From Candidatus Harrisonbacteria bacterium (GTDB lineage Bacteria > Patescibacteriota > Minisyncoccia > UBA6257 > 1-14-0-10-40-38): a stretch of 64,000 nt of DNA. Location of the stretch: contig JAHFLD010000004.1 of the NCBI GenBank assembly GCA_023245035.1, positions 13,496-77,495 on the forward strand, read 5' to 3'. The notes under the pieces are model-generated. The model saw only the letters and a list, made by a program, of their open reading frames with translations. It made no database searches and was not told the DNA's origin. Shown here piece by piece: positions 26,375-37,788 of this stretch (its first letter is position 1; the number at the start of each line of letters is the position of its first letter). A program made the position numbers and the translations under genes.

Positions 26375-26475
26375 ACTAGATACAATACTTCTATTCCGGG
26401 ATAGCCCCGCCTACGCCAAGAGCTTTGGCGGGCAGGTCAGCGATATATTCAACCGCTATCCCGAAATAGAAACAT

Positions 26476-26547
26476 TCCGGGATAGCTCAGCGGTAGAGCG
26501 GCGCGCTGTTAACGCGAAGGTCGCAGGTTCGATCCCTGCTCCCGGAG
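26476..26547 (+). tRNA. tRNA-Asn (anticodon GTT)
   Basis: Hand-folded: acceptor TCCGGGA/TCCCGGA, D-arm GCTC..GAGC, anticodon loop CTGTTAA, T-arm GCAGG-TTCGATC-CCTGC, discriminator G. Confidence 0.85.
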
Positions 26548-28014
26548 CCCGATTGGTTGATTAGCGAAAGTGAGGATCGTACTAAATGGTTCTCGTAGCG
26601 TAAACACTGGCTTTCTGCCGTTTACGATTGAGTTCTGAAGTAGATAGTTGAGAAACTTTCGTTTTTCGGGAACTTCCGAACCTTTAAATATTTCGAGCGC
26701 GTTCTTGGCGAGATTTAGCACAGTAGAAGCGGTATTGTAATAGTTTTCATCGGCTTGGGTATGTTCTTCAAGGTGCAGGTTAATTTCGTACTGTCGTTCT
26801 TTTAGTTCTTTAAACTTCTTGTCATAGTCGTCCTTAGTAATACTACTGTCGAGCAGTAAGTCCATAAGCCGATCTATTTTGACCTGTACTAGGTTGTATT
26901 CCTTCTGAAAGCTATCTACTGCGTTTTCGTGATACGAGGTTTTAGATTCGTTGCTACGCCGCAAACCGGTTACTACTTCATCTATCTTCTCCTGTGGCAT
27001 GGCCTTAAATGCCCCTAGGATGTCGTAGATTGGCTTCAAGAGCTCTCTTTCGGGTATGTATAGCTTTTCTTTGCACAAGTCTTTTTTGGCGTTCGTACAA
27101 CTGTAGTAAATATATTTCCCTTTAGCGGTTTCCGGACTCATAGCGCACCCGCATTTACCACAGCGAAGCAGTCCTCTAAAAATATGAGGCTTGGCCGCAT
27201 ATTGGAACGGCTTCTTGCCCCAACCCTTCCTAATCTCTTGGCACCGATCAAAAAGCTCTTTAGTAATGAGGGGCTGATATTTATGAGGATACAGCTTGCC
27301 CTTGCACCTCATAATGCCGTAATAGAATGGGTTACTTAAAATAAAATTAACCATGCTGAAAGCTAACGGCTTCCCCGTCTTACTTTTCAAACCATCTTTA
27401 GCTATGGCAATCCTTACTGTTTTGCCTGAATGATTTCCCGTGGCGTATAGCTCAAACATTTTGCGGATTAAATGCGCTGTATTTGGATCGGGAATTATAT
27501 CTTTCCTTAATCGCTTCTCGGCGTCCAAAGCGATGTTCTGATAGCCCATCGGCGCTTTGCCCGTCCATTCTCCGTTTCTTCGCTTCTGCTCAAACTTTCT
27601 TTTAACATTATCGCTCAACTGGAGGACATAACTTCTTGCAAACATAACAGCCATATCCCAACGGAGCAATTCCGAACTGTTTGAGTTTTGGCCTAAAACT
27701 AAATTTTCACGATAGAAATGAATTTCGAGCTTGCCAACTTTCCTAAGCTCATCTAACAGCACCGATTCTTTAAAGCTTCTTTGGAGCCGGTCAACAGTAT
27801 CAACCACGAGAGCGATCGGCTCCTTGGAGTCTTTTATGACTTCAACTACTTCTTGAAAGCGCTCTCTGTCGCCGGTAGTCGAGGATTCTTCAATTTCGTA
27901 TGTTTTCCAAACTGAAAGCCCTTTGAATTTCACATAATCAGAAACACGGACTACCTGCGCTTCATTTGAGTCCTGTTTTTTGTCTGATACACGGGCTAAG
28001 ATGATGGCTTTCAT
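26509..28014 (-). CDS. Large serine recombinase (resolvase N-domain, recombinase domain, zinc ribbon)
   Basis: N-terminus MKAIILARVSDKKQ carries the catalytic Ser. A CGKCGCAMSPE...YYSCTN zinc ribbon follows. The 3' end overlaps the tRNA-Asn antisense. Confidence 0.85.
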   Translation of the reverse strand: MKAIILARVSDKKQDSNEAQVVRVSDYVKFKGLSVWKTYEIEESSTTGDRERFQEVVEVIKDSKEPIALVVDTVDRLQRSFKESVLLDELRKVGKLEIHFYRENLVLGQNSNSSELLRWDMAVMFARSYVLQLSDNVKRKFEQKRRNGEWTGKAPMGYQNIALDAEKRLRKDIIPDPNTAHLIRKMFELYATGNHSGKTVRIAIAKDGLKSKTGKPLAFSMVNFILSNPFYYGIMRCKGKLYPHKYQPLITKELFDRCQEIRKGWGKKPFQYAAKPHIFRGLLRCGKCGCAMSPETAKGKYIYYSCTNAKKDLCKEKLYIPERELLKPIYDILGAFKAMPQEKIDEVVTGLRRSNESKTSYHENAVDSFQKEYNLVQVKIDRLMDLLLDSSITKDDYDKKFKELKERQYEINLHLEEHTQADENYYNTASTVLNLAKNALEIFKGSEVPEKRKFLNYLLQNSIVNGRKPVFTLREPFSTILTFANQPIGLREQGSNLRPSR

Positions 28015-28017
28015 AAT

Positions 28018-31000
28018 TTATTCGGAGAACTTACCGCCAGAAATGTCGAAAAATCTCTCAAAGAAGCTCGTCAGTTTACTTAGAACACTTTCACGTTTTT
28101 TGGTACGCTCACCGGTGGGAGAAAATCGAGATACGGCCGGTAAAACCTTAGTGATTGCTGTACCCGTCGTTGCCAAATTACCGTCACGAAACGCATTTCG
28201 TACAAACCTATACGTTGCGTCGTGATCAAGATTTTCGCTCACAATAATTTGTTCGAGTTCTTCAACCTTTTTCCCTTCAACAAACTTCTGCCAGTCGTCA
28301 TCAACCACGGAGTGTATATCAAGCGAAGAGATAAACTGGTTAATGAGGTCTTTCTTGTTGCGTAGCTCAACACTTGAGTCTATTGCTTTGTTAATATCAA
28401 CTAAAATCTCACGATTTTTTGTGTGGTCTTCGTGGTATTTTTTAATGAGCCCTAGTACGTAGTCGATATTTATCTCTACCTGTTTAATAAGCTCCATCTC
28501 AAACACCAAGTCATCGTTGATATTCTCTTTAGCATCCTCAACTCCCTTGCGAAATTCGTTATAAAGATCAATATATGCACTGTGATAATCTTGAATATCT
28601 CGATCCGATAAAATCTCATTTCCAATAAACTCGTCAAAGGTCGTCAGGATATTACGCACGCGCAAAATTCCGCCATAGAGCTTAATGAAGTCTTTTTGGT
28701 TTTGCTCACCTATAATTCTTTCCCCGACGGGGAACTTTTCCAAAAGCTCCGCGACGAGGCTTGCATAGCCACGTATTTGCTTCTCGCCATCTTTATAGCC
28801 GTGATAATACTCAGCATATGATTTGAGTAGAACGATGCCACTCGCTTCCTTATCACCAAAGAGCGCTATGGACTCATTGGTCGCTTTTTCTAGGTTGCGG
28901 AAACAAACAATGTTACCGAAAGTTTTTACGCTGTTTAAAATACGATTCGTACGCGAAAATGCTTGTAGAAGTCCGTGCAATCTTAGATTTTTGTCTACCC
29001 ATAGCGTATTGAGTGTTGTTGCATCAAAACCAGTCAAAAACATATTGACCACGATAAGAATATCGATCTCACGATCTTTTGCGCGCTGACTGACATCTTT
29101 ATAGTAATTTTGAAATTTATCAGATGACGTATCGTAGGATGTGCCAAACATCGCATTGTAATCAGCAATAGCTCCATCCAAAAAATCTCTTGAACTCACA
29201 TCGAGTCCAGTCGTATCCTCTGAGTTTTCATCTATCATTCCATCCGCATCCTCGTCGTTCACTCCAAAGCTATAAATTGTTGCTACTTTGAGTCGCTTAT
29301 CACTTGGTACGTCCGCAAGTTGTTTTTTGAACTCTGCATAATACTTCTTTGCAACATCAATAGATGAAACTGCAAAAATTGAGTTAAAGCCAGCGAGTCT
29401 CCGATCTTTCAACTTATAAAAACTATTGCGCTTGGTCTTTTGATCAAAATGCTCCCGAATGTAGCCAACAATATTTGCCAATCGTTCAGGTGCGGCAAGC
29501 ACTGCCTCACGATCAATATCGCTCACTTTCTTATCTTCAATATTCTCAGCTTCGCGGACGGTAGAAATATAATCAACCTTAAACGGTAAAACATTTTTAT
29601 CAGCGATTGCGTCCACGATAGTGTACGTGTGCAATTTTTCGCCAAAGGCTTGCTCGGTAGTCTTCAAATCGAGTCGCCCACCAGAAGACGCATTCATCGC
29701 AAAAATCGGCGTGCCGGTAAAGCCAAAGAGATGATAGCTTTTAAATGTCTTGGTAATAGCGGCGTGCATGTCGCCGAACTGTGAGCGGTGACATTCGTCA
29801 AAGATAAGCACGACGTGGCCATCAAAAATCGTATGCCCAGAATTTCGTCCAATAAAACGATCGAGTTTCTGAATAGTTGTGATGATGATACGTGCGTTCG
29901 GATTCTCTAGCTGACGCTTCAAAATCGCCGTACTAACATTGCTATTGGCCGCACCTTTTTCAAACTTGTCATATTCTCGCATCGTCTGGTAGTCCAGGTC
30001 TTTACGGTCAACAATAAAAACCACCTTATCTACATACGGCAATTTGCTCACCAGCTGTGCCGTCTTGAAGCTGGTCAAAGTTTTTCCTGATCCTGTCGTG
30101 TGCCAAATATACCCGCCAGCCTCTACCGTGCCGAGCTTTTTGTAGTTTGTACTTACTTCGATGCGACTCAGTATTCGCTCTGTTGCTACTATCTGATACG
30201 GTCGCATCACCAAGAGCTGTTTGTCGGTAGTAAACACGCAATAACGGGTCAAAATATTCAAAAGTGTGTGCTTCGCAAAAAAAGTCTTGGCAAAGTCCGT
30301 TAAGTCTGTAATGGGTCGGTTGGTAGAATCTGCCCACCAACTCGTAAACTCAAAACTATTACTCGCCCGTTTACCTTTTTTCGCTGTACCGGTACTGACT
30401 TCTTTTATGTGCTCTTTACGTGTCGTATTGCTGTAATACTTTGTGTGTGTGCCGTTTGAAATAATAAACAGTTGCACATATTCAAAAAGTCCTGCTGAAG
30501 CAAAGAAGCTTTCCCGCTGATAACGATTGATCTGATTGAAAGCTTCTTGAATAGCAACCCCGCGACGTTTAAGCTCTACATGCACCAACGGCAGGCCGTT
30601 TACTAGCACCGTCACATCATAGCGGTTGGCACGCTTTCCCTCATCCGTCGCGTATTGGTTGATAACCTGCAGACTGTTATCGTGAATATTGTCCTTTTTG
30701 AGGAGGTAGACATTTTTTACCGTACCGTCCTCGCGCGTCAGGTTCTTGATGTGGTCTTCTTGAATGGTTGCTGTCTTTTCTTCAACGCTTTGATTCGGGT
30801 TAGCAATCTCACTTGCAAAGAAATGCTCCCATTCCGTATCGGTGAATGTAAAACCATTAAGCTTCTCTAATTGCAGACGGAGGTTCAATGTCAAATCAGC
30901 CTCAGAGGTGATAGGTAGATACTCATACGCTTGCTTTGTAAGTTGTTCTATAAATACCTTCTCTAAATTCGCTTCACTTTGATACTGTGTGACACGCTGA

Positions 31001-31077
31001 ATATTTGGCGTGTATTGTGCCACTACGGTGCTTTGTGGATTTTCCGCGACGAGATTGTATTTATTGTTACTTGGCAT
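28018..31077 (-). CDS. hsdR: Type I restriction enzyme R subunit
   Basis: 1019 aa with the helicase motif TGSGKT, DEAH-like motif FDECHRS, and a nuclease region near the N-terminus. Confidence 0.9.
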   Translation of the reverse strand: MPSNNKYNLVAENPQSTVVAQYTPNIQRVTQYQSEANLEKVFIEQLTKQAYEYLPITSEADLTLNLRLQLEKLNGFTFTDTEWEHFFASEIANPNQSVEEKTATIQEDHIKNLTREDGTVKNVYLLKKDNIHDNSLQVINQYATDEGKRANRYDVTVLVNGLPLVHVELKRRGVAIQEAFNQINRYQRESFFASAGLFEYVQLFIISNGTHTKYYSNTTRKEHIKEVSTGTAKKGKRASNSFEFTSWWADSTNRPITDLTDFAKTFFAKHTLLNILTRYCVFTTDKQLLVMRPYQIVATERILSRIEVSTNYKKLGTVEAGGYIWHTTGSGKTLTSFKTAQLVSKLPYVDKVVFIVDRKDLDYQTMREYDKFEKGAANSNVSTAILKRQLENPNARIIITTIQKLDRFIGRNSGHTIFDGHVVLIFDECHRSQFGDMHAAITKTFKSYHLFGFTGTPIFAMNASSGGRLDLKTTEQAFGEKLHTYTIVDAIADKNVLPFKVDYISTVREAENIEDKKVSDIDREAVLAAPERLANIVGYIREHFDQKTKRNSFYKLKDRRLAGFNSIFAVSSIDVAKKYYAEFKKQLADVPSDKRLKVATIYSFGVNDEDADGMIDENSEDTTGLDVSSRDFLDGAIADYNAMFGTSYDTSSDKFQNYYKDVSQRAKDREIDILIVVNMFLTGFDATTLNTLWVDKNLRLHGLLQAFSRTNRILNSVKTFGNIVCFRNLEKATNESIALFGDKEASGIVLLKSYAEYYHGYKDGEKQIRGYASLVAELLEKFPVGERIIGEQNQKDFIKLYGGILRVRNILTTFDEFIGNEILSDRDIQDYHSAYIDLYNEFRKGVEDAKENINDDLVFEMELIKQVEINIDYVLGLIKKYHEDHTKNREILVDINKAIDSSVELRNKKDLINQFISSLDIHSVVDDDWQKFVEGKKVEELEQIIVSENLDHDATYRFVRNAFRDGNLATTGTAITKVLPAVSRFSPTGERTKKRESVLSKLTSFFERFFDISGGKFSE

Positions 31078-32284
31078 ATTCGTTGAAAGCTAAAAGTTTA
31101 CCCCGATAGTATTCATACTGTGATCTACGAGCAGAGAGTTCTGCTGGCAAACCTATCGAAATATCACTTACAAGCGCATTGAACTTATCCAAAATCGTCA
31201 CTATACGCTCTTGTTCTGCGAGGGGTGGAATTGAGACCTCCACATTTGCCATGACATTACTCATAAGTTTGGGATTGCCCATTCCAGCACTGACATATTT
31301 TTTAGCAACAGTTGCCAGTATGTACGCAAGAAATTTTGTATTTACATCTTCAACTTTGACTTTCAAAAGCCCGCAAACATTTGTAAGACTAAACTTTCCG
31401 TTACGATAGAAAATAGAACCGGCGTTTGCCCCGTCAGTTGTCCAAGTCACATACTCACCGTCATAATCGTAAGTACTGATGTATCCAAAGACACCATCAT
31501 CTGTTGTTTGCGATGAGTAGACTGGGTATTCGCCTCTATTTGTTTTTAGATAATCTTTTGACATAACTCTACCTCGGTTAATTTGACATATCTCCGATAT
31601 CGTGGCGCGTCTTACTCTCTCTCTCTCGGTTCCTTCCTTAAATGTCAGAAGTTGTGAGCGATAATGCTCGTACTGCTTCTTTCTCGCTTCTAGCTCCGCT
31701 TCTAGCTCCGCTTCTAGCTCCGTAAAACTATTAAGAGTTTTGATAATATTTTCTTGTACTGCAAGTGGTGGTAGGGGTATTTTAATTTTTGCAAAACGCT
31801 TTTTTGAGACATTAAATCTCGTCACTCCACTGGCAGTTTTTGCAATCTGTTTTCTCATCTGTTCATCCCTAAACAAATATTTAGAGAACTCGGGCAACAA
31901 CAAGTTATTGTCATTCAGGCGAAAGCCAAAACAAAAACTATTTAAATACAACGGCTCACTAATTTTCTTTGTTAAAACAGAGGACATCCCACACTCGTCT
32001 GGCGTTTCTGATGAGCCTGTAAATAACACATCACCATATTCGATCCTGTTTTGATTTTCGTCTTTGCCTACTTTTACAAAGACATCGATATCGGTATTGA
32101 CCGCGATGTTAGAGTATATATTCATGTAGGTAACAAATTTTGCGTTACCATTGCTAAAATCATCTTTGCTTTTGCCTGACAGCCCACCATAAAACTCGCC
32201 TAGTTCTCCCAACTCCTTAAACTCAACCCCATTGGGGCAGAGCTTAGCAATCAGTTTTTCAATTTTGCTCATATGTTTAATCAT
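31067..32284 (-). CDS. hsdS: Type I restriction-modification specificity subunit
   Basis: Two target-recognition domains separated by a central (ELEA)3 coiled-coil spacer. It overlaps hsdM and hsdR by a few nt, in operon fashion. Confidence 0.85.
   Translation of the reverse strand: MIKHMSKIEKLIAKLCPNGVEFKELGELGEFYGGLSGKSKDDFSNGNAKFVTYMNIYSNIAVNTDIDVFVKVGKDENQNRIEYGDVLFTGSSETPDECGMSSVLTKKISEPLYLNSFCFGFRLNDNNLLLPEFSKYLFRDEQMRKQIAKTASGVTRFNVSKKRFAKIKIPLPPLAVQENIIKTLNSFTELEAELEAELEARKKQYEHYRSQLLTFKEGTERERVRRATISEICQINRGRVMSKDYLKTNRGEYPVYSSQTTDDGVFGYISTYDYDGEYVTWTTDGANAGSIFYRNGKFSLTNVCGLLKVKVEDVNTKFLAYILATVAKKYVSAGMGNPKLMSNVMANVEVSIPPLAEQERIVTILDKFNALVSDISIGLPAELSARRSQYEYYRGKLLAFNEYAK
31686..31721. 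repeat. Perfect 12-bp x3 tandem repeat (CTTCTAGCTCCG) in the hsdS central conserved region
   Basis: Encodes ELEAELEAELEA in-frame on the minus strand. Confidence 0.9.
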
Positions 32285-33867
32285 TTTGTTCCTTCAATAT
32301 CGCTAACGATCTCGTCAATCGAGGTGCGGAGTTCCTGTTGCCGTGCCACGATGCCCGCTATTCTCGTGTTCAGCTCCGTAATGTCTACCACCTCGCGAGT
32401 GTCTTCCGCCATAACATAGCTTGAAACGGCAATATTGTAGTCATTTTCGGCAACGGCTTTATTGTCCACGAGTTTGGCAAAATACTTGGCATCTTTGCGA
32501 GTACTGAATGCTTCCAAAATCTTGGAGCGATTCGTCTCGCTCAATTTATTTTTGTTGCCACCACGAGTAAATTCGACAGAGGCGTCGATAAAAAGTGTTT
32601 TGTTATCTTTCTTGCTCTTTTTAAGCACAATGATACAAGTGGCTATGGTAGTACCAAAAAAGAGATCAGGCGGTAGCTGGATAACTGTATCAACGTAGTT
32701 GTTGTCTATCAGATACTTGCGAATTTTCTGCTCTGCACCACCACGATAGAGGACGCCCGGAAATTCAACGATTGCGGCAGTGCCACTGGTAGAAAGCCAG
32801 CTGAGCATGTGCATAGTAAAAGCTAGGTCAGCTTTACTCTTTGGAGCGAGTACTCCCGCAGGAGAGAAGCGTGGATCATTGATGAGGAGAGGGTTAGCAT
32901 CGCCCTCCCAGTGGATGGAATATGGCGGGTTGGAGACGATAGCGTCAAACGGTTCATCGTCCCAATGCTTTGGATCGGTGAGCGTATCGCCGTGAGCAAT
33001 ATCAAAATTGTTGTAGTTTATATCGTGCAAGAACATGTTGATACGACATAAGTTGTAGGTGGTCAGGTTAATTTCCTGTCCGAAAAAACCTAGACGAACA
33101 TTTTCTTTGCCGAGCACTTTGGCGAATTTAAGGAGTAGTGAGCCAGAACCGCAGGCTGGATCATAGACCTTATTTACTTCTTTCTTGCCGACTGTGGTAA
33201 TTTCGGCCAAAAGTTCACTGACTTCCTGTGGAGTGTAGAACTCGCCTCCAGACTTACCAGCGTTTGAGGCGTACATAGTCATGAGGAACTCATACGCATC
33301 GCCGAAAGCGTCTATTGTATTGTCGGAGTAGTTGCCAAGGCGAAGGTCGCCAATAGATTCAAATAGTTTTGCGAGTTTTTGATTTCGTTTTTCTACCGTA
33401 CTTCCTAGTTTATTGGAGTTGACATCAAGGTCATCAAACAAGCCCTTGATATCATCTTCACTGTTCGCACCTTTTGCAGAATTTTCAATATTACGAAAGA
33501 CTGCTGTAAGGGTTTCGTTGAGATTAGCGTCATTGCGAGCATTTTTCCTGACATTCACAAAAAGCTCACTTGGCAAAATGTAAAAACCTTTTTCTTTGAC
33601 GGTATCAGCTCGACCGAACTCAGCTTCTTTGTTGGAAAGTGTAGCGTAATCAAAATCTTTTTTAGCCGCGCGGCGTTCATCAGCATTTATATAGTTGGTC
33701 AAATTTTCACTGATGAAGCGATAAAAGAGTATACCGAGTACATACTGCTTGAAGTCCCAACCATCTACGCTTCCACGTAAATCATTAGCAATCTGCCAAA
33801 TAGCACGATGCAGCTCGGCACGCTCCTGCTCTTTGGTTGTATTTAGATGTGCTTCTTTGTTTGGCAT
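32281..33867 (-). CDS. hsdM: Type I R-M N6-adenine DNA methyltransferase subunit
   Basis: NPPY motif (VSNPPYSIHW) and an AdoMet motif FYTPQEV...DPACGSGS. Confidence 0.9.
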   Translation of the reverse strand: MPNKEAHLNTTKEQERAELHRAIWQIANDLRGSVDGWDFKQYVLGILFYRFISENLTNYINADERRAAKKDFDYATLSNKEAEFGRADTVKEKGFYILPSELFVNVRKNARNDANLNETLTAVFRNIENSAKGANSEDDIKGLFDDLDVNSNKLGSTVEKRNQKLAKLFESIGDLRLGNYSDNTIDAFGDAYEFLMTMYASNAGKSGGEFYTPQEVSELLAEITTVGKKEVNKVYDPACGSGSLLLKFAKVLGKENVRLGFFGQEINLTTYNLCRINMFLHDINYNNFDIAHGDTLTDPKHWDDEPFDAIVSNPPYSIHWEGDANPLLINDPRFSPAGVLAPKSKADLAFTMHMLSWLSTSGTAAIVEFPGVLYRGGAEQKIRKYLIDNNYVDTVIQLPPDLFFGTTIATCIIVLKKSKKDNKTLFIDASVEFTRGGNKNKLSETNRSKILEAFSTRKDAKYFAKLVDNKAVAENDYNIAVSSYVMAEDTREVVDITELNTRIAGIVARQQELRTSIDEIVSDIEGTK

Positions 33868-33869
33868 AA

Positions 33870-34052
33870 CTATTTTGTTCTTACTTTGCTCATAAACCGC
33901 TCAAACTCGGATCGCTTGATGCGAAACTCTTTGCCTATCTTATGGGCAACTAATTTACCCGCACCTATATAGCGGTAAATTGTCATCACATTTACTTTAA
34001 GCTTCCCGGCTAATTCCTTTGCTGTATAAAATTCATCTTTCATAGTTAGCAT
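33870..34052 (-). CDS. Excisionase/AlpA-family HTH DNA-binding protein
   Basis: 60 aa with the HTH YTAKELAGKLKVNVMTIYRYIGAGKLVAHKIG. Confidence 0.6.
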   Translation of the reverse strand: MLTMKDEFYTAKELAGKLKVNVMTIYRYIGAGKLVAHKIGKEFRIKRSEFERFMSKVRTK

Positions 34053-34057
34053 AGTTA

Positions 34058-35335
34058 TTATACTTTACTTTTGTTTACAGGCGAAGTGGATAACTTTTCG
34101 GTCTTATAACTTGCGAATATCTTGATTGCTTCTTCGACTTGAGCAACCCAACTATGGCATTGTTTTTGCTTGACCTTTTTATTGAGCTTCTTAGTGTCGT
34201 CTCTTATCCGGTACCATGTGCGATCGACGCATATGGGCTTGAGTAGATGCCTTAACTCTCGTGTGCCACCTTCTTCCTTACATAGAGCTTTTAGTCCCAC
34301 TAGATATATGGCTTCTTTGGGTTTTATCTTTTTGTTTGCTTTAAGAAGCTCTTCGAGATGCTTTTTCGGACTGCCCTTTAAATCAAAGATAAAGAGGTTC
34401 TCTTCGGCTATCATCTTTTCCCAGTAGAGCTTTACGATTTTTTGGCATATATCCTTTTTAAATATTTCTTGGAAGCTAGGACTTTCCTTGTAGCCAATTT
34501 CTTTTAAAACTTCACCAAGTTTTGTCTTATGTGCAAGACGAACTTCTATACGTAGTATTTCCATTGGCTTCCCTATCTTCTGAATGGCTTCAAAGAGGGA
34601 TAACTGCCGCGCCGGTTGATCGCCATCAATTGACCGGCCGTTCGCTTGGCTTAGATCGGCAATCTTGTCGTAGATGACTAACTGATGGCGCTTGGCATAC
34701 ATCTGCAATGACTGCCCGTCGTTCCGGAAGGTTACTTTTGCTAAATCAAGTTTCTTTTTTAGGTTTATCTTGTGTAGCTCTTTAATCACGAAGCTAGATG
34801 TATATCCATCTTTAAGTTCTATATTTTTGGAAGGATGAAGGGCCGATACTTTGGCGTTCATTATCGCCTCTTCGGAGGTAGCAACACCCATTGCGTTAAG
34901 GTCACTTTGGAGCTTGATAACTACTCTTTTGAAGTCAGACTCTTCGAGCTCATCGACATTCGTGCCGAATAACAGCTTCGGAGCAGAAAACTCAATCTTT
35001 AATGGTATTTCTATGCCCTTGTTGGTCGCCCGTTTAGTGATGGTTAGGCGTGGCCTCTTAATGCCTATCTTCTCCTCTGCGGGTGTCGTGTTATTCACAC
35101 ATTTTAGACCATTAGCACCATATCCTCTTAGTAGGTTGGCTGATGGTTTAAACCTTTCCGGTTGTAAAATTTGATAACTATTTTGGGAAATATTGAGGAT
35201 TATCGTATCGAACATTTTAATTTTTATTAGATTTATAATTTTGAGGATTTTGACGTTTGTCCTCTTCGAGAAGCAGGGCAAAAAAGCCGATAAGGTTTTG
35301 GTTAGCTTCATAATTGGCAAGGGCTTCAAATCCAC
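34058..35335 (-). CDS. Putative replication-initiation (Rep_trans-like) protein. Start uncertain.
   Basis: SLQMYAKRHQLVIYDKIADL resembles the Y...xYDK motif of Rep_trans/RstA-type initiators. The assignment is tentative. Confidence 0.35.
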   Translation of the reverse strand: MDLKPLPIMKLTKTLSAFLPCFSKRTNVKILKIINLIKIKMFDTIILNISQNSYQILQPERFKPSANLLRGYGANGLKCVNNTTPAEEKIGIKRPRLTITKRATNKGIEIPLKIEFSAPKLLFGTNVDELEESDFKRVVIKLQSDLNAMGVATSEEAIMNAKVSALHPSKNIELKDGYTSSFVIKELHKINLKKKLDLAKVTFRNDGQSLQMYAKRHQLVIYDKIADLSQANGRSIDGDQPARQLSLFEAIQKIGKPMEILRIEVRLAHKTKLGEVLKEIGYKESPSFQEIFKKDICQKIVKLYWEKMIAEENLFIFDLKGSPKKHLEELLKANKKIKPKEAIYLVGLKALCKEEGGTRELRHLLKPICVDRTWYRIRDDTKKLNKKVKQKQCHSWVAQVEEAIKIFASYKTEKLSTSPVNKSKV

Positions 35336-35516
35336 CTTTTTCCACCAATTCTTTTTCGGGTTTTTTATTTCGCGTTCTCACGCCCTGAATAATAAATAAC
35401 CCTCTAAGCTCCACGTGGCCTAGAGGGTTCGAGAGGGTTTTCTTGTAAAATGATAAAAAAAGACCACCGAATTTAAGGTAGTTTTAAAAGCCCTCTAAGC
35501 CGATGCAACCCACGGT

Positions 35517-36755
35517 TTAATTATCCCTCTTGGCGCTACCTACAAACATCCTGATATTCTTTTTCTGTTCATCAAATTCAAATTTTAAACGACTATCTAG
35601 CTTTTTGATTTTTTGTATTTCCTTAATTGCCCATACTATTTTGGCAATTTTTGCGCTTAGAGCTATGTGGATATTCTCAAAATCTGGATTCTCTTTATCT
35701 TTTTTGATTCTTATATCTTCAAAGACTACTTCAACACTCTTAAAGACATTCAGGGGGTCGCTAAGGGCTTTAATCAGCTTAAATTGTCTTGTGTCTGCTT
35801 TTGCAATCGATATTTTTGGGCCCTCTTTATAGAATTTTAAATATCCCCCGCCATCGATTATGACGGTAAATGGCTTTATTTTTGGATTAAGAGATTCTTC
35901 TTGTTCGTCCTTTACTTGTTCTACAATGTTTTTTGAATTTGTATTTTTTTCCATTTTTGCCTCGGTTTCTTCACGATCTAGTTCATCAAGCATACCTAGA
36001 TGGAATCTTTGTAGAGACAGTTTTGGGTCACCCGATAGAAGCATGTTATGTCTTTCGCCTCTTTTTAGAGCCTCAACGGCTTCTATATAAAAACCCCGAC
36101 TAAATTTCGTAGCTCCAATCCCCGATGAATCAGGGGCATTTATATCAGCAATGTAGTATTCAAAAGCTTTATATGTCTTCACTAGATTTTCTAATGCGCC
36201 CCATATCGTAATATCTTTTGCTCTTTCCATCCTTTTATTTATTTCTTTAACCTCTTCATATGATTCGCTGATCTTAAAATCTCTTATAGTATCGGCGCCC
36301 ATGGGGTCTTTGCCAAAAATTACATATTTTTCAATAAAAGAAACCTTACCAAGTCCGTAAAGCATTACAATGATTTCCTCAATCGCATCGTACAGCGATC
36401 CAGTTACTCCGCGAGAAGAAATGATCGCTCCTTTTTTATAGAGATCGTAGCTCTCAAAAAGACTAAAAAGCGGGTTATGGATAAATTTCTCCTTTTTAGT
36501 TTTTGCTGTGATGTCATCGTAGACCGCTTCTATTTCTTTAAAGGCTTTGACTTTAAGTTTTTCTATATTCTTTAGGTCATTTACATGATCTTTATCTATA
36601 TTCCCGGCTATCCTATTTAATACAGGATGGGCGCTTATATAGCTGATATAACCATATATCCAAGCTGAATACTGATAGTTGACTTGAGTATCAACGAAGG
36701 TCTTATATCTCCGATCTAGTCCTTCTTTTAGTTTTGGAATGCTTAAATCGTCCAT
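35517..36755 (-). CDS. Hypothetical 412-aa island cargo protein, no recognisable domain
   Basis: A long, low-GC ORF that I could not place in a known family. Confidence 0.5.
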   Translation of the reverse strand: MDDLSIPKLKEGLDRRYKTFVDTQVNYQYSAWIYGYISYISAHPVLNRIAGNIDKDHVNDLKNIEKLKVKAFKEIEAVYDDITAKTKKEKFIHNPLFSLFESYDLYKKGAIISSRGVTGSLYDAIEEIIVMLYGLGKVSFIEKYVIFGKDPMGADTIRDFKISESYEEVKEINKRMERAKDITIWGALENLVKTYKAFEYYIADINAPDSSGIGATKFSRGFYIEAVEALKRGERHNMLLSGDPKLSLQRFHLGMLDELDREETEAKMEKNTNSKNIVEQVKDEQEESLNPKIKPFTVIIDGGGYLKFYKEGPKISIAKADTRQFKLIKALSDPLNVFKSVEVVFEDIRIKKDKENPDFENIHIALSAKIAKIVWAIKEIQKIKKLDSRLKFEFDEQKKNIRMFVGSAKRDN

Positions 36756-36906
36756 TATTCTTTACTTTAGTTTACATTCCATGATTATTCAATTGGTAAT
36801 GTGGGCTATTTTAAAAGCCTTGAATCGTTACAGGTAATGAGGTTGACTTTGATGTTACTAACAGGCTACCATGTCAATCCGAAGCAGTAAGAATTATAAT
36901 AGGCAT

Positions 36907-37302
36907 ATGGACATATTTCCTGTTTTAGGGGTGGTTTATAAATCCAAAGATGGAAATTGGCGTGGTTTTTGTTATCCGTATGATGTCGCCTGCAATACCA
37001 TGACCAAGGAAGAAGCTATGAAAAACTTAATGGAGTTAATGGAGACTTATGAAGAGAATTTAAGTAACTATAACAGTCCGAGACATCTCATAGTAAAAAA
37101 ACTTTCCGAGAAAGAGGATCAAGATGTTTTCAAGAAAATATGGCCGGAAGTTTCTAGAAAGTTTGCTGAACGATTAAGGGTGGCATCTAATCCAACAAAA
37201 TTCTCTGATCGTCTCTCGCAAGATACAAAGTTCACTGTGGATTCTGGCAAGAGCACGGTTTCTTATTCAAATCGACCTTTAGCGCTTGCTTCTTCAGAAT
37301 AA
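36907..37302 (+). CDS. HicB-like (UPF0150) antitoxin-family protein
   Basis: MDIFPVLGVVYKSKDGNWRGFCYPYDVACNTMTKEEAMKNLMELMETYEE matches the HicB/UPF0150 N-terminal pattern. The start is taken at the internal Met of ORF 36871. Confidence 0.45.
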   Translation: MDIFPVLGVVYKSKDGNWRGFCYPYDVACNTMTKEEAMKNLMELMETYEENLSNYNSPRHLIVKKLSEKEDQDVFKKIWPEVSRKFAERLRVASNPTKFSDRLSQDTKFTVDSGKSTVSYSNRPLALASSE

Positions 37303-37585
37303 TGTGGCGATACCAACAAAAATAGACTTCGGAGATTTCTTTAAAGCAGTTCGCCTTATTTCAGTTAAAAAAGGATTCACCTGCAAACCTTATAATGGCA
37401 GTAAGGGTTCTGCTATATGCTTTAACTTCTTTAGAGCAGGAGAAGAAGAACCATTTGGCGTTTTTTGTGTGCACGAAGACAAGCATAGAAAAGTCATATA
37501 TTCCGATGATCTCAAGAAAGCCTGTAAGCAATTAGGGGTGACTAAGGAAGAATTTGAAGTTTTCATTAAAAATGGCTTTAAGTAG
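37286..37585 (+). CDS. HicA/YcfA-like putative toxin
   Basis: G-F-x...GSKGS...H...K-x-I...LKKACKQLGVTKEEF pattern resembles HicA family mRNA interferases. It overlaps the upstream HicB-like gene by 17 nt. Confidence 0.4.
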   Translation: MLLQNNVAIPTKIDFGDFFKAVRLISVKKGFTCKPYNGSKGSAICFNFFRAGEEEPFGVFCVHEDKHRKVIYSDDLKKACKQLGVTKEEFEVFIKNGFK

Positions 37586-37664
37586 AAAAAGAAACGAGGT
37601 TTAAATAGCTAAGTTCCGTTCTTATTTGTCTCCAATTCAGGGTTCTAAACCTATCCAACCACGG

Positions 37665-37691
37665 GAGCCAAGTTGGATGATTATCGAAGGT
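37665..37691. repeat. Putative attR. Imperfect direct repeat of tRNA-Asn 3' end and downstream sequence (26544-26570).
   Basis: GGAGCCAAGTTGGATGATTATCGAAGG against GGAGCCCGATTGGTTGATTAGCGAAAG, 20/27 identical. Confidence 0.4.
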
Positions 37692-37788
37692 AAAAATACT
37701 ACAGGTTGTGCTGTAGTATAATATTTTTATGCGCTAGTGCTTTGGCGGATGGGTTATAAATTAAAATGTGTCATAATTATGGGAGAGC

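Follow-up and report, generated by a model that had tools for sequence, protein, structure and literature searches.

The window analysed here, a stretch of 64,000 nucleotides from contig JAHFLD010000004.1 of a Candidatus Harrisonbacteria bacterium, carries an island at positions 26547-37666 that is a real 11.1-kb mobile element. It is very probably an integrative, plasmid-like element of 11,120 bp that was inserted at a tRNA-Asn gene by a large serine integrase (LSI), has its attachment site attP within the integrase gene (int), combines a replication core of the Rep_trans type with restriction-modification (R-M) cargo and bears at its right junction (attR) the scar of a tandem element. Elements driven by LSIs are known in kind; what distinguishes this one is a bacterial attachment site (attB) based on the T loop of the tRNA, an attP embedded in int that gives two isoforms of the enzyme, and a slot for R-M cargo. 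It belongs to a large and apparently undescribed family, which would ferry restriction systems among the ultra-small bacteria of the candidate phyla radiation (CPR).

In the proposed mechanism, the element would have been inserted by its own LSI at the extreme 3' end of tRNA-Asn(GTT), with the crossover at 5'-GA-3' (tRNA nucleotides 71-72) within the sequence GGAGCC. One attB half-site would consist of the 3' strand of the tRNA acceptor and the T stem-loop, with GATCGAAC at positions 12-19, and the corresponding attP half-site would carry a mimic of it, TTTAGAAC, at positions 17-24, an outward shift of 5 bp equivalent to the attP/attB distinction of A118-type integrases. The crossover would fall in codon Leu490 of the int reading frame, the circular form encoding an integrase of 518 amino acids (aa) with a conserved C-terminal tail of 28 residues (PWLDRFRTLNWRQIRTEL...). 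Integration would park this tail at attR, 11 kb off, and put in its place 11 junk residues taken from the antisense tRNA, while the enzyme, though truncated, retains every canonical domain. The element, which carries neither virion nor conjugation genes, would replicate by rolling circle, and its host is a bacterium of the Patescibacteria (CPR).

The island is placed between tRNA-Asn(GTT) on the left and a bidirectional terminator upstream of mscL on the right. Its GC content is 40.7%, whereas the adjoining 10 kb have 49.6% on the left side and 48.2% on the right. A first-pass annotation of the window had described an integrative island of ~11.1 kb at tRNA-Asn, with a sharp fall in GC content 3' of this gene; both statements were confirmed, the size agreeing with the 11,120 bp between crossovers and the boundaries lying a few bases from those given there. 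The tRNA gene is still intact in the integrated state, its encoded CCA being now CCC. The right boundary is validated by homology and not by a repeat, because the 75 bp immediately inside attR match the far ends or the attP of related elements (blastn; nhmmer E = 1e-15). An ENA metagenome contig matches the window without any difference, and the island occurs in the other long contigs of the species as well.

The stop codon of int lies 42 nucleotides within the antisense tRNA-Asn: residues 1-490 come from the element and the last 11 (REQGSNLRPSR) are read off the tRNA. A Resolvase-type catalytic domain (Pfam) occupies residues 3-150, and R8 and S10, as well as the zinc-ribbon cysteines 285, 288, 290 and 306, are invariant among 30 homologues. 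Over residues 170-468 a profile of the family matches the C-terminal domain of A118 integrase (4kis) in PDB, and in an AlphaFold2 model of a full-length relative (P0004) long helices (338-442) are found amid the zinc-ribbon elements, the zinc-ribbon domain ends near residue 482 and two short helices follow (488-507). The best NCBIfam match is CcrB (E = 1.4e-29, far below the family cutoff) and identity to characterised LSIs is only ~25%, but the enzyme is a bona fide LSI. A tyrosine recombinase (Phage_integrase domain) is absent from every open reading frame (ORF) of the element in the Pfam scan. The Pfam domains, the ORF and the gene map thus agree with the earlier description of a large serine recombinase gene which overlaps the tRNA 3' end on the opposite strand and is contiguous and co-oriented with hsdR-hsdS-hsdM and a helix-turn-helix (HTH) gene. 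Homologues of the integrase number more than 2,000 at E <= 1e-20 and come mostly from metagenomes of Patescibacteria.

These homologues are conserved up to ..QPxGL and then end in one of three ways: with an immediate stop (..GLRG*), by reading through the T arm of an antisense tRNA (..REQGSNLRP..), or with a conserved tail (..LPLLVVFRTLNWDSIKSELQF..) of the form ..LDxFRTLNWxxIKxEL... Truncated enzymes make up ~75% of the 120 closest homologues. In the window, the minus strand just inside attR encodes, in the integrase frame, LPWLDRFRTLNWRQIRTELSYLNLVSFST*; this detached tail, 11 kb from int, begins LPWLDRFRTLNWRQIRTEL..., contains the T-loop mimic and ends ...NLVSFST. The gene and its detached tail share a frame only when the element is excised as a circle; the int ORF thus contains attP, and upon integration its last ~29 codons end up at the opposite end of the element. 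The match to the A118 C-terminal domain ends near residue 468 and, taken with the P0004 model, indicates that the tail is an add-on and that the integrated isoform keeps its canonical domains. An uninterrupted attP is found in contig L011 (9,052 bp), which has no tRNA and whose 516-aa integrase bears the tail; in blastn this tail segment aligns with the far ends of L003, L012, L013 and L014, which are integrated elements, and with the attR of the window. A profile search with the tail recovered ~22 loci; in every one it shares the strand of int and the frame of the core and stands 5.4-11.1 kb upstream of the integrase gene. A pattern scan of JGI metagenomes for uninterrupted attP sites yielded two further contigs with a full-length integrase.

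Exact identity between attL and attR in the window is limited to the 6 bp GGAGCC, and in relatives to 4-9 bp. Within the tRNA-Asn group, the intersection of these identities is GCTC on the integrase strand (tRNA nucleotides 71-74); the groups at tRNA-Ser, tRNA-Glu and tRNA-Asp share the four corresponding positions. When 10 reconstructed attP sites were scanned and scored for dyad symmetry, the maximum fell at T|C with a modest score (0.39), and the central dinucleotide is therefore taken to be TC, that is, 5'-GA-3' at tRNA nucleotides 71-72. Dyad symmetry had also been sought by eye through CAACC/GGTTG pairs; their spacings were inconsistent between elements and the scored scan superseded this approach. 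With the axis so placed, GAAC occurs at half-site positions 21-24 in 10 of 10 attP sites, inside TTTAGAAC, and at positions 16-19 in 9 of 9 attB tRNA arms, inside the T-loop antisense GATCGAAC. On the host side, the B' arm varies from host to host, the tRNA being the only conserved attB half-site. In the LI integrase of Listeria the zinc-ribbon motif was located at positions 16-24 in attP and 11-19 in attB (Rutherford et al. 2013, PMC3783163). The sites found here appear to have the geometry of LSI sites, with little sharing beyond the dinucleotide and the motif 5 bp farther outward in attP, and the FRT codons of the tail seem to double as the T-loop mimic at this larger distance from the crossover. 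On this basis, the attP junction of the excised circle is predicted to read ...CTTTCGCTAATCAACCAATCGGGCTCCCGTGGTTGGATAGGTTTAGAACCCTG... and the attB junction of the empty site ...GGTTCGATCCCTGCTCCCGGAGCCAAGTTGGATGATTATCGAAGGTAAAAATAC..., the tRNA...GGAGCC being joined to AAGTTGGATGATTATCG.

The 27-bp imperfect direct repeat reported in the first-pass annotation does exist at both ends of the island (26545-26571 and 37665-37691; 21/27 identities, 24/35 over a longer box), but it is no duplication produced by integration, the core being GGAGCC only. The part of the box beyond GGAGCC lies outside the tRNA sequence, and a displaced tRNA fragment recurring as a direct repeat, as in Islander-type tRNA islands with tyrosine integrases, was not found: only GGAGCC (nucleotides 70-75) recurs. 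The repeat is the best match in the window with a runner-up at 22/35, and the bare sequence match is barely above chance; the boundary, however, stands by homology. The two junctions resemble each other beyond the core because the arm on the host side of attR is the decayed remnant of an integrase 3' end. In the integrase frame this arm reads SIFTFDNHPTWL, to be compared with ..ILTFANQPTWL at the integrase C-terminus, and it matches the P' arms of relatives at ~18 of 21 positions. In other hosts a terminator hairpin follows the tRNA after 8-10 nucleotides; in the window ~20 extra nucleotides separate the core from the hairpin at 37696-37719, and other loci of the family are without such flank similarity at attR. 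It was concluded that the box is most probably the scar of an earlier, related tandem element, mostly deleted, and not a product of integration. The puzzle of a long repeat made by a serine integrase, raised in the annotation, therefore dissolves, and the junctions behave as serine-integrase sites should. An empty attB of the species might accordingly lack the scar segment AGTTGGATGATTATCGAAGG.

Were this a classical tRNA island, the 27-bp box would be an integration duplication in the style of tyrosine integrases and attP would bear a copy of the tRNA 3' end. The position of the imperfect repeat, exactly at both ends, and the regeneration of the tRNA at attL would suit such an origin, which is nevertheless hardly credible: the sole recombinase is a serine integrase, exact identity at the junctions is only 6 bp, the repeated part is mostly outside the tRNA and reads as integrase C-terminus, and in L003, L012, L014, L015, L053 and other loci the attR host arm is unlike the element arm, with identities of 4-9 bp. 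It is also very improbable that the island is a prophage or phage satellite instead of a plasmid-like integrative element. Serine integrases are common in temperate phages and the replication initiator (Rep) is distantly related to the G2P/CRI family, which includes filamentous-phage initiators; against this, Pfam and PHROG revealed no genes for capsid, tail, coat or Zot-like proteins, elements of the family can be as small as 5.4 kb, and 2.9 million viral contigs of IMG/VR contained four relatives (one at 34% identity, three at 23%). Rep was unmatched in 50,697 phage records (INPHARED) and 72,556 plasmid records (PLSDB), and no close relatives of either Int or Rep were found in these three collections.

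Two further alternatives concern the tail and the present state of the element. If the tail were only a DNA site, the P arm of attP with an incidental open frame, the exact coincidence of TTTAGAAC with the position expected for the motif of the zinc-ribbon domain would be explained, and so would the Arg codon of FRT, which is always AGA or GGA and never CGN, suggesting a constraint at the DNA level. This is unlikely in view of conservation that reaches 66 bp or more away from the core, compared with a half-site of ~25 bp, and of a three-base periodicity: for the tail residues F, T, L, N, I, E and L, identity among 25 elements is 0.9-1.0 at codon positions 1 and 2 and 0.36-0.72 at position 3. 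Moreover, codons 10-22, at a distance of 28-66 bp from the core and so beyond any plausible half-site, have a ratio of nonsynonymous to synonymous polymorphism (pN/pS) of 0.45, and in attP-form contigs the frame is always open for ~25-45 codons. These codon patterns argue that the constraint on the tail is at the protein level, beyond that of a binding site alone. Purifying selection acts on a tail that is fused to the enzyme only in the circle, and the elements must therefore cycle regularly via the excised state. This bears on the view of the island as an immobile relic, fixed in the lineage, with excision lost and the truncated integrase effectively a pseudogene. The island occupies the same place in all contigs of the species (4-5 samples), neither a circle nor an empty site was recovered, and the integrase is without its native C-terminus, as a relic would have it; still, we consider this improbable, since such selection requires that elements regularly reach the circular form, truncation is the normal integrated state throughout the family, the Int, Rep, HTH_17 and R-M genes are intact, and the 29-codon tail at attR is open and near the family consensus. 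This copy would thus probably be mobile at present, and the tail or HTH_17 may have a role in directionality.

Several observations weigh against the reading of the island as an LSI-inserted, rolling-circle element. For this copy neither an empty attB nor an excised circle was recovered, all long contigs collected for the species carrying the island. A comparison with relatives lacking it, which had been proposed as a check, gave no empty attB: an exact look-up of MscL returned only island-bearing contigs and L006, and the mscL relatives L091-L095 (82-86% identity) are not syntenic and lack tRNA-Asn upstream. Both ends of L011 fall within a single ResIII-like gene, whose reading frame continues across the join as it would in a circle; in the absence of a terminal overlap this does not prove circularity. 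The hairpin that lies upstream of rep in the window has no conserved counterpart among 25 relatives, and no replication origin was identified. The crossover dinucleotide GA was derived from comparison and symmetry with a dyad score of only 0.39, and in the tRNA-Asp group (L034 and L040) the minimal attL/attR identity is GCGC, in which every dinucleotide is palindromic, an uneasy fit with the polarity rules of serine integrases that is hard to reconcile. Contig L006 (1,095 bp, sample ERZ27280021) starts at window position 37677, within attR and 8 nucleotides beyond GGAGCC. Its start fits neither crossover model and therefore no inference was drawn from it; the assembly may have broken here because the population is heterogeneous at the junction.

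The location of attP inside int might serve as a built-in state sensor, the circle making a full-length isoform with the tail and the integrated form a tail-less one, and the two differing in directionality, stability or partner binding. We regard this as a tentative proposal, somewhat more doubtful than probable. For example, the full-length enzyme would integrate and the tail-less enzyme would excise, alone or with the HTH_17 protein. If so, this would be a serine integrase with an autonomous directionality switch.

Among characterised systems, the LSIs of the A118/U153/LI type from Listeria phages share the order of catalytic, recombinase and zinc-ribbon domains, the latter with an inserted coiled coil. 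LI integrase has the same 5-bp shift between attP and attB, which corresponds here to 17-24 versus 12-19, and TTTAGAAC resembles its motif TTTAGTATC (PMC3783163). In contrast to this type, the target here is the 3' end of a tRNA or transfer-messenger RNA (tmRNA) gene and not a protein-coding gene, a single attB half-site (the tRNA) is conserved, the int ORF contains attP, and a conserved tail extends ~28 aa past the end point of A118 integrase. The nearest described case is that of the ssrA islands of Dehalococcoides, in which a CcrB-like serine recombinase (DsiB) is encoded on the reverse strand adjoining attL at the tmRNA 3' end (McMurdie et al. 2011, PMC3146451). They resemble the present element in being low in GC, mobilisable and arranged in tandem arrays with leftover repeats, and differ from it in a 20-bp direct repeat, insertion at the T loop, a second small recombinase (DsiA) and ParB, RecF and Mom-like genes; neither an attP within int nor a tail swap was described for them (PMC3146451). 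The element of the window has, for its part, a crossover at nucleotides 71-72, identities of 4-9 bp in its family, one recombinase and a Rep_trans replicon.

An attP inside an ORF, with an attB overlapping the tRNA 3' end, was reported for the mycobacteriophages BPs, Brujita and their relatives (Broussard et al. 2013, as summarised in PMC9262239). According to that summary, the C-termini of circular and integrated forms differ and the stop is sometimes provided by the host at attL; the same arrangement, an attP inside an ORF whose product changes its C-terminus upon integration, was found here. The BPs-type systems differ, as described there, in having tyrosine integrases and common cores of ~35 bp, in that the gene cut is that of the repressor and in that an ssrA-like tag is lost (PMC9262239). 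In the present family it is the serine integrase itself that is cut, and an ssrA-like degradation tag is not evident in the tail. The integrases of a few relatives have ..AA or ..IAC as their last residues, which is no more than suggestive. The archaeal integrases of the SSV type are tyrosine recombinases with attP inside int, the gene being split upon integration into two large non-functional parts; here, by comparison, only the last 28 residues are lost, and none of the catalytic and DNA-binding domains is damaged. Searches of the open-access literature, the coverage of which was incomplete, turned up no account of a serine integrase with attP within its own ORF, or of this CPR family, and a prior description is possible.

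The extent of the family was surveyed in 79 GTDB species-representative loci. At the integrase 3' end, an antisense tRNA or tmRNA was called in 45 of them (Asn 20, Ser 6, tmRNA 5, Gln 4, Asp 2, Glu 2, His 2, Leu 2, Trp 1, Tyr 1), and a further 16 have an acceptor/T-arm-like sequence without a tRNA call, for a total of 61. The hosts are mainly Patescibacteria, together with Chlamydiae (at tmRNA) and Bacteroidetes. In eight loci (L020, L023, L030, L032, L038, L053, L065, L072) a normal acceptor and T arm are present ~0-60 nucleotides past int with no ARAGORN call; these tRNA-like sequences diverge inside the anticodon (..CGCTTAC|ACTTTATC..) and may represent intron-containing or split tRNA genes of CPR hosts. 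Tandem arrays also occur: L053 holds two P arms (2846 and 4389), and in L013, L017, L025, L063 and L090 int reads over a hybrid junction into the P arm of another element and so regains a tail. The latter five were considered as excised forms and rejected; they have a P arm also upstream and are therefore older members of tandem arrays. Three loci on Bacteroidetes contigs (L007, L024, L026), ~62% identical and with full-length tails, are found amid ArdC, TraG/type IV secretion system (T4SS)-coupling, zeta-toxin and HTH genes; by these neighbourhoods, the integrase clade also serves conjugative elements outside the CPR bacteria. Two GenBank records from human faeces, the unannotated "Bacteriophage sp." entries MT837677.1 (6.4 kb) and MT836653.1 (9.3 kb), contain integrase genes whose products share 35-37% identity with the enzyme of the window, and may be small elements of the same kind and not phages.

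In the TIGER survey, 14 of 297 elements with serine integrases (S-Int) were at tRNA or tmRNA genes, and experimental proof was called for (2020, PMC7192596). A whole clade at such ends (61 of 79 loci; more than 2,000 homologues at E <= 1e-20) challenges a working generalisation, and would be the first large and coherent group of serine integrases specialised for tRNA/tmRNA 3' ends, with the T loop read as the zinc-ribbon motif. The sequences offer a mechanistic rationale in the T loop as attB motif and its coding mimic in attP; such a reading of the universal T loop, if true, would explain how in CPR bacteria, Chlamydiae and Bacteroidetes the clade hops among tmRNA and at least 10 different tRNAs. 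An integrase isoform set by the integrated or free state provides a testable hypothesis for directionality control. The elements appear to be a main vehicle for R-M and other defence systems among CPR bacteria with their tiny genomes, and a compact integrase with a ~50-bp target in a universally conserved tRNA gene is a candidate integration vector. To our knowledge, almost no genetic tools exist for Patescibacteria.

The features of the island and its junctions are collected in Table 1. Proteins were compared with Pfam, PHROG, NCBIfam, PADLOC and PDB as indicated.

Table 1. Genes, attachment sites and other features of the island and its flanks, in window coordinates.
Feature	Position	Strand	Basis
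tRNA-Asn(GTT)	26475/26476-26547/26550	+	ARAGORN; Rfam RF00005, 67.7 bits
Large serine integrase, integrated isoform, 501 aa	26509..28014	-	Pfam Resolvase, Recombinase, Zn_ribbon_recom; PHROG integrase 2.3e-68
attL core GGAGCC, putative central GA at 26545-26546 (tRNA nucleotides 71-72)	26544..26549		attL/attR comparison, dyad-axis scan, half-site register
hsdR, Type I restriction subunit (cargo)	28018..31077	-	Pfam; PADLOC REase_I 1170 bits
hsdS, Type I specificity subunit (cargo)	31067..32284	-	Pfam Methylase_S, two stretches; PADLOC
hsdM, Type I methyltransferase (cargo)	32281..33867	-	Pfam N6_Mtase 3.5e-115, HsdM_N; PADLOC
HTH_17 excisionase-family protein, 60 aa (core gene)	33870..34052	-	Pfam HTH_17 8.8e-13; TIGR01764 E = 2.6e-12
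Rolling-circle replication initiator (Rep), 385 aa, Rep_trans / G2P fold (core gene)	34058..35215	-	
65-aa protein abutting rep	35217..35414	-	C-terminal 30 aa conserved in 38 loci (tblastn); called as gene in L001
Hairpin, 12-bp stem and T-rich run, between 412-aa gene and rep module	35398..35429	-	
412-aa protein	35517..36755	-	Weakly conserved, few relatives (tblastn)
143-aa protein, unnamed small-protein family, WRGFxxPYD motif	36871..37302	+	
99-aa ORF, only in this element	37286..37585	+	Not called as gene in source assemblies
Detached int 3' end, P arm of attP; 29 codons LPWLDRFRTLNWRQIRTELSYLNLVSFST and stop	37578..37667	-	Translation, blastn, nhmmer, codon analysis
attR core GGAGCC, putative central GA at 37665-37666	37664..37669		attL/attR comparison
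Putative scar: decayed integrase 3' end / P' arm, SIFTFDNHPTW	37668..37700	-	Translation; P' arms of relatives
Host terminator-like hairpin, bidirectional	37696..37719		Counterpart directly after tRNA in other hosts

A core module formed by the 65-aa protein, Rep, HTH_17 and Int is conserved in ~40-50 loci (tblastn). Of the ~50 related loci in which the HTH_17 protein has a match (tblastn), most show 58-74% identity and one shows 40%. Its assignment to the excisionase family agrees with the AlpA/Xis-like HTH of the first-pass annotation and makes it a candidate directionality factor or regulator. The 385-aa Rep was found to have the Rep_trans fold. Pfam (PF02486, PF05144) gave no match for this protein, nor did Foldseek against PDB at E < 0.02 or a PDB profile search; among 36 homologues, four match Phage_CRI (best E = 6.4e-7) and four match Rep_trans (best E = 0.02), and Y182-D183-K184 is invariant. 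Compared with RepD/RepDE of pT181 and the Geobacillus Rep (PDB 4cwc, 4cij), to which it is only 12-15% identical, and with Rep_trans plasmids at large, this Rep has an extra helical C-terminal domain of ~130 aa and belongs to an integrative replicon. The hairpin that separates the 412-aa gene from the rep module is a candidate for either a terminator or an origin.

The cargo is a complete Type I R-M system, as had been annotated: HsdR, HsdS and HsdM are all present and intact according to Pfam and PADLOC, and HsdS has two target-recognition domains. Between these two, hsdS contains a (GA)6G tract (31615-31627). Contig L002, from another sample and otherwise 99.99% identical, has (GA)5G, 2 bp shorter, a frameshift by which HsdS is split into products of 230 aa and 165 aa; this looks like phase variation of Type I specificity by means of a simple repeat. 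In relatives, the slot between HTH_17 and int is occupied by R-M systems of Type III, IIG or II or by other defence genes, D12-MTase/AlwI R-M systems and a PLD-SNF2 helicase among the occupants, and cargo outside the slot includes a TPR-PIN protein (L030) and a methylase/helicase pair (L003, L011, L025).

The 412-aa protein had no match in Pfam, PHROG, NCBIfam, PADLOC or PDB. The HicBA-like pair of the first-pass annotation found no support in the 143-aa protein and the 99-aa ORF: HicA and HicB were unmatched in Pfam (E <= 10), NCBIfam (E <= 1), PADLOC and PDB sequences, none of 37 homologues of the 143-aa protein matched HicB, and the 99-aa ORF had no match in any library searched, HicA included. 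The family of the 143-aa protein comprises 66 cluster representatives, one of which (P0361) is a protein of 7,571 aa with nine copies of the domain. On the other side of the island, at window 26394-26465, a 12-nucleotide copy of the tRNA-Asn 5' end (ttccgggatagc) lies ~80 nucleotides upstream of the tRNA; the segment has no Rfam match, and the copy pairs as an inverted repeat with gctatcccgaa.

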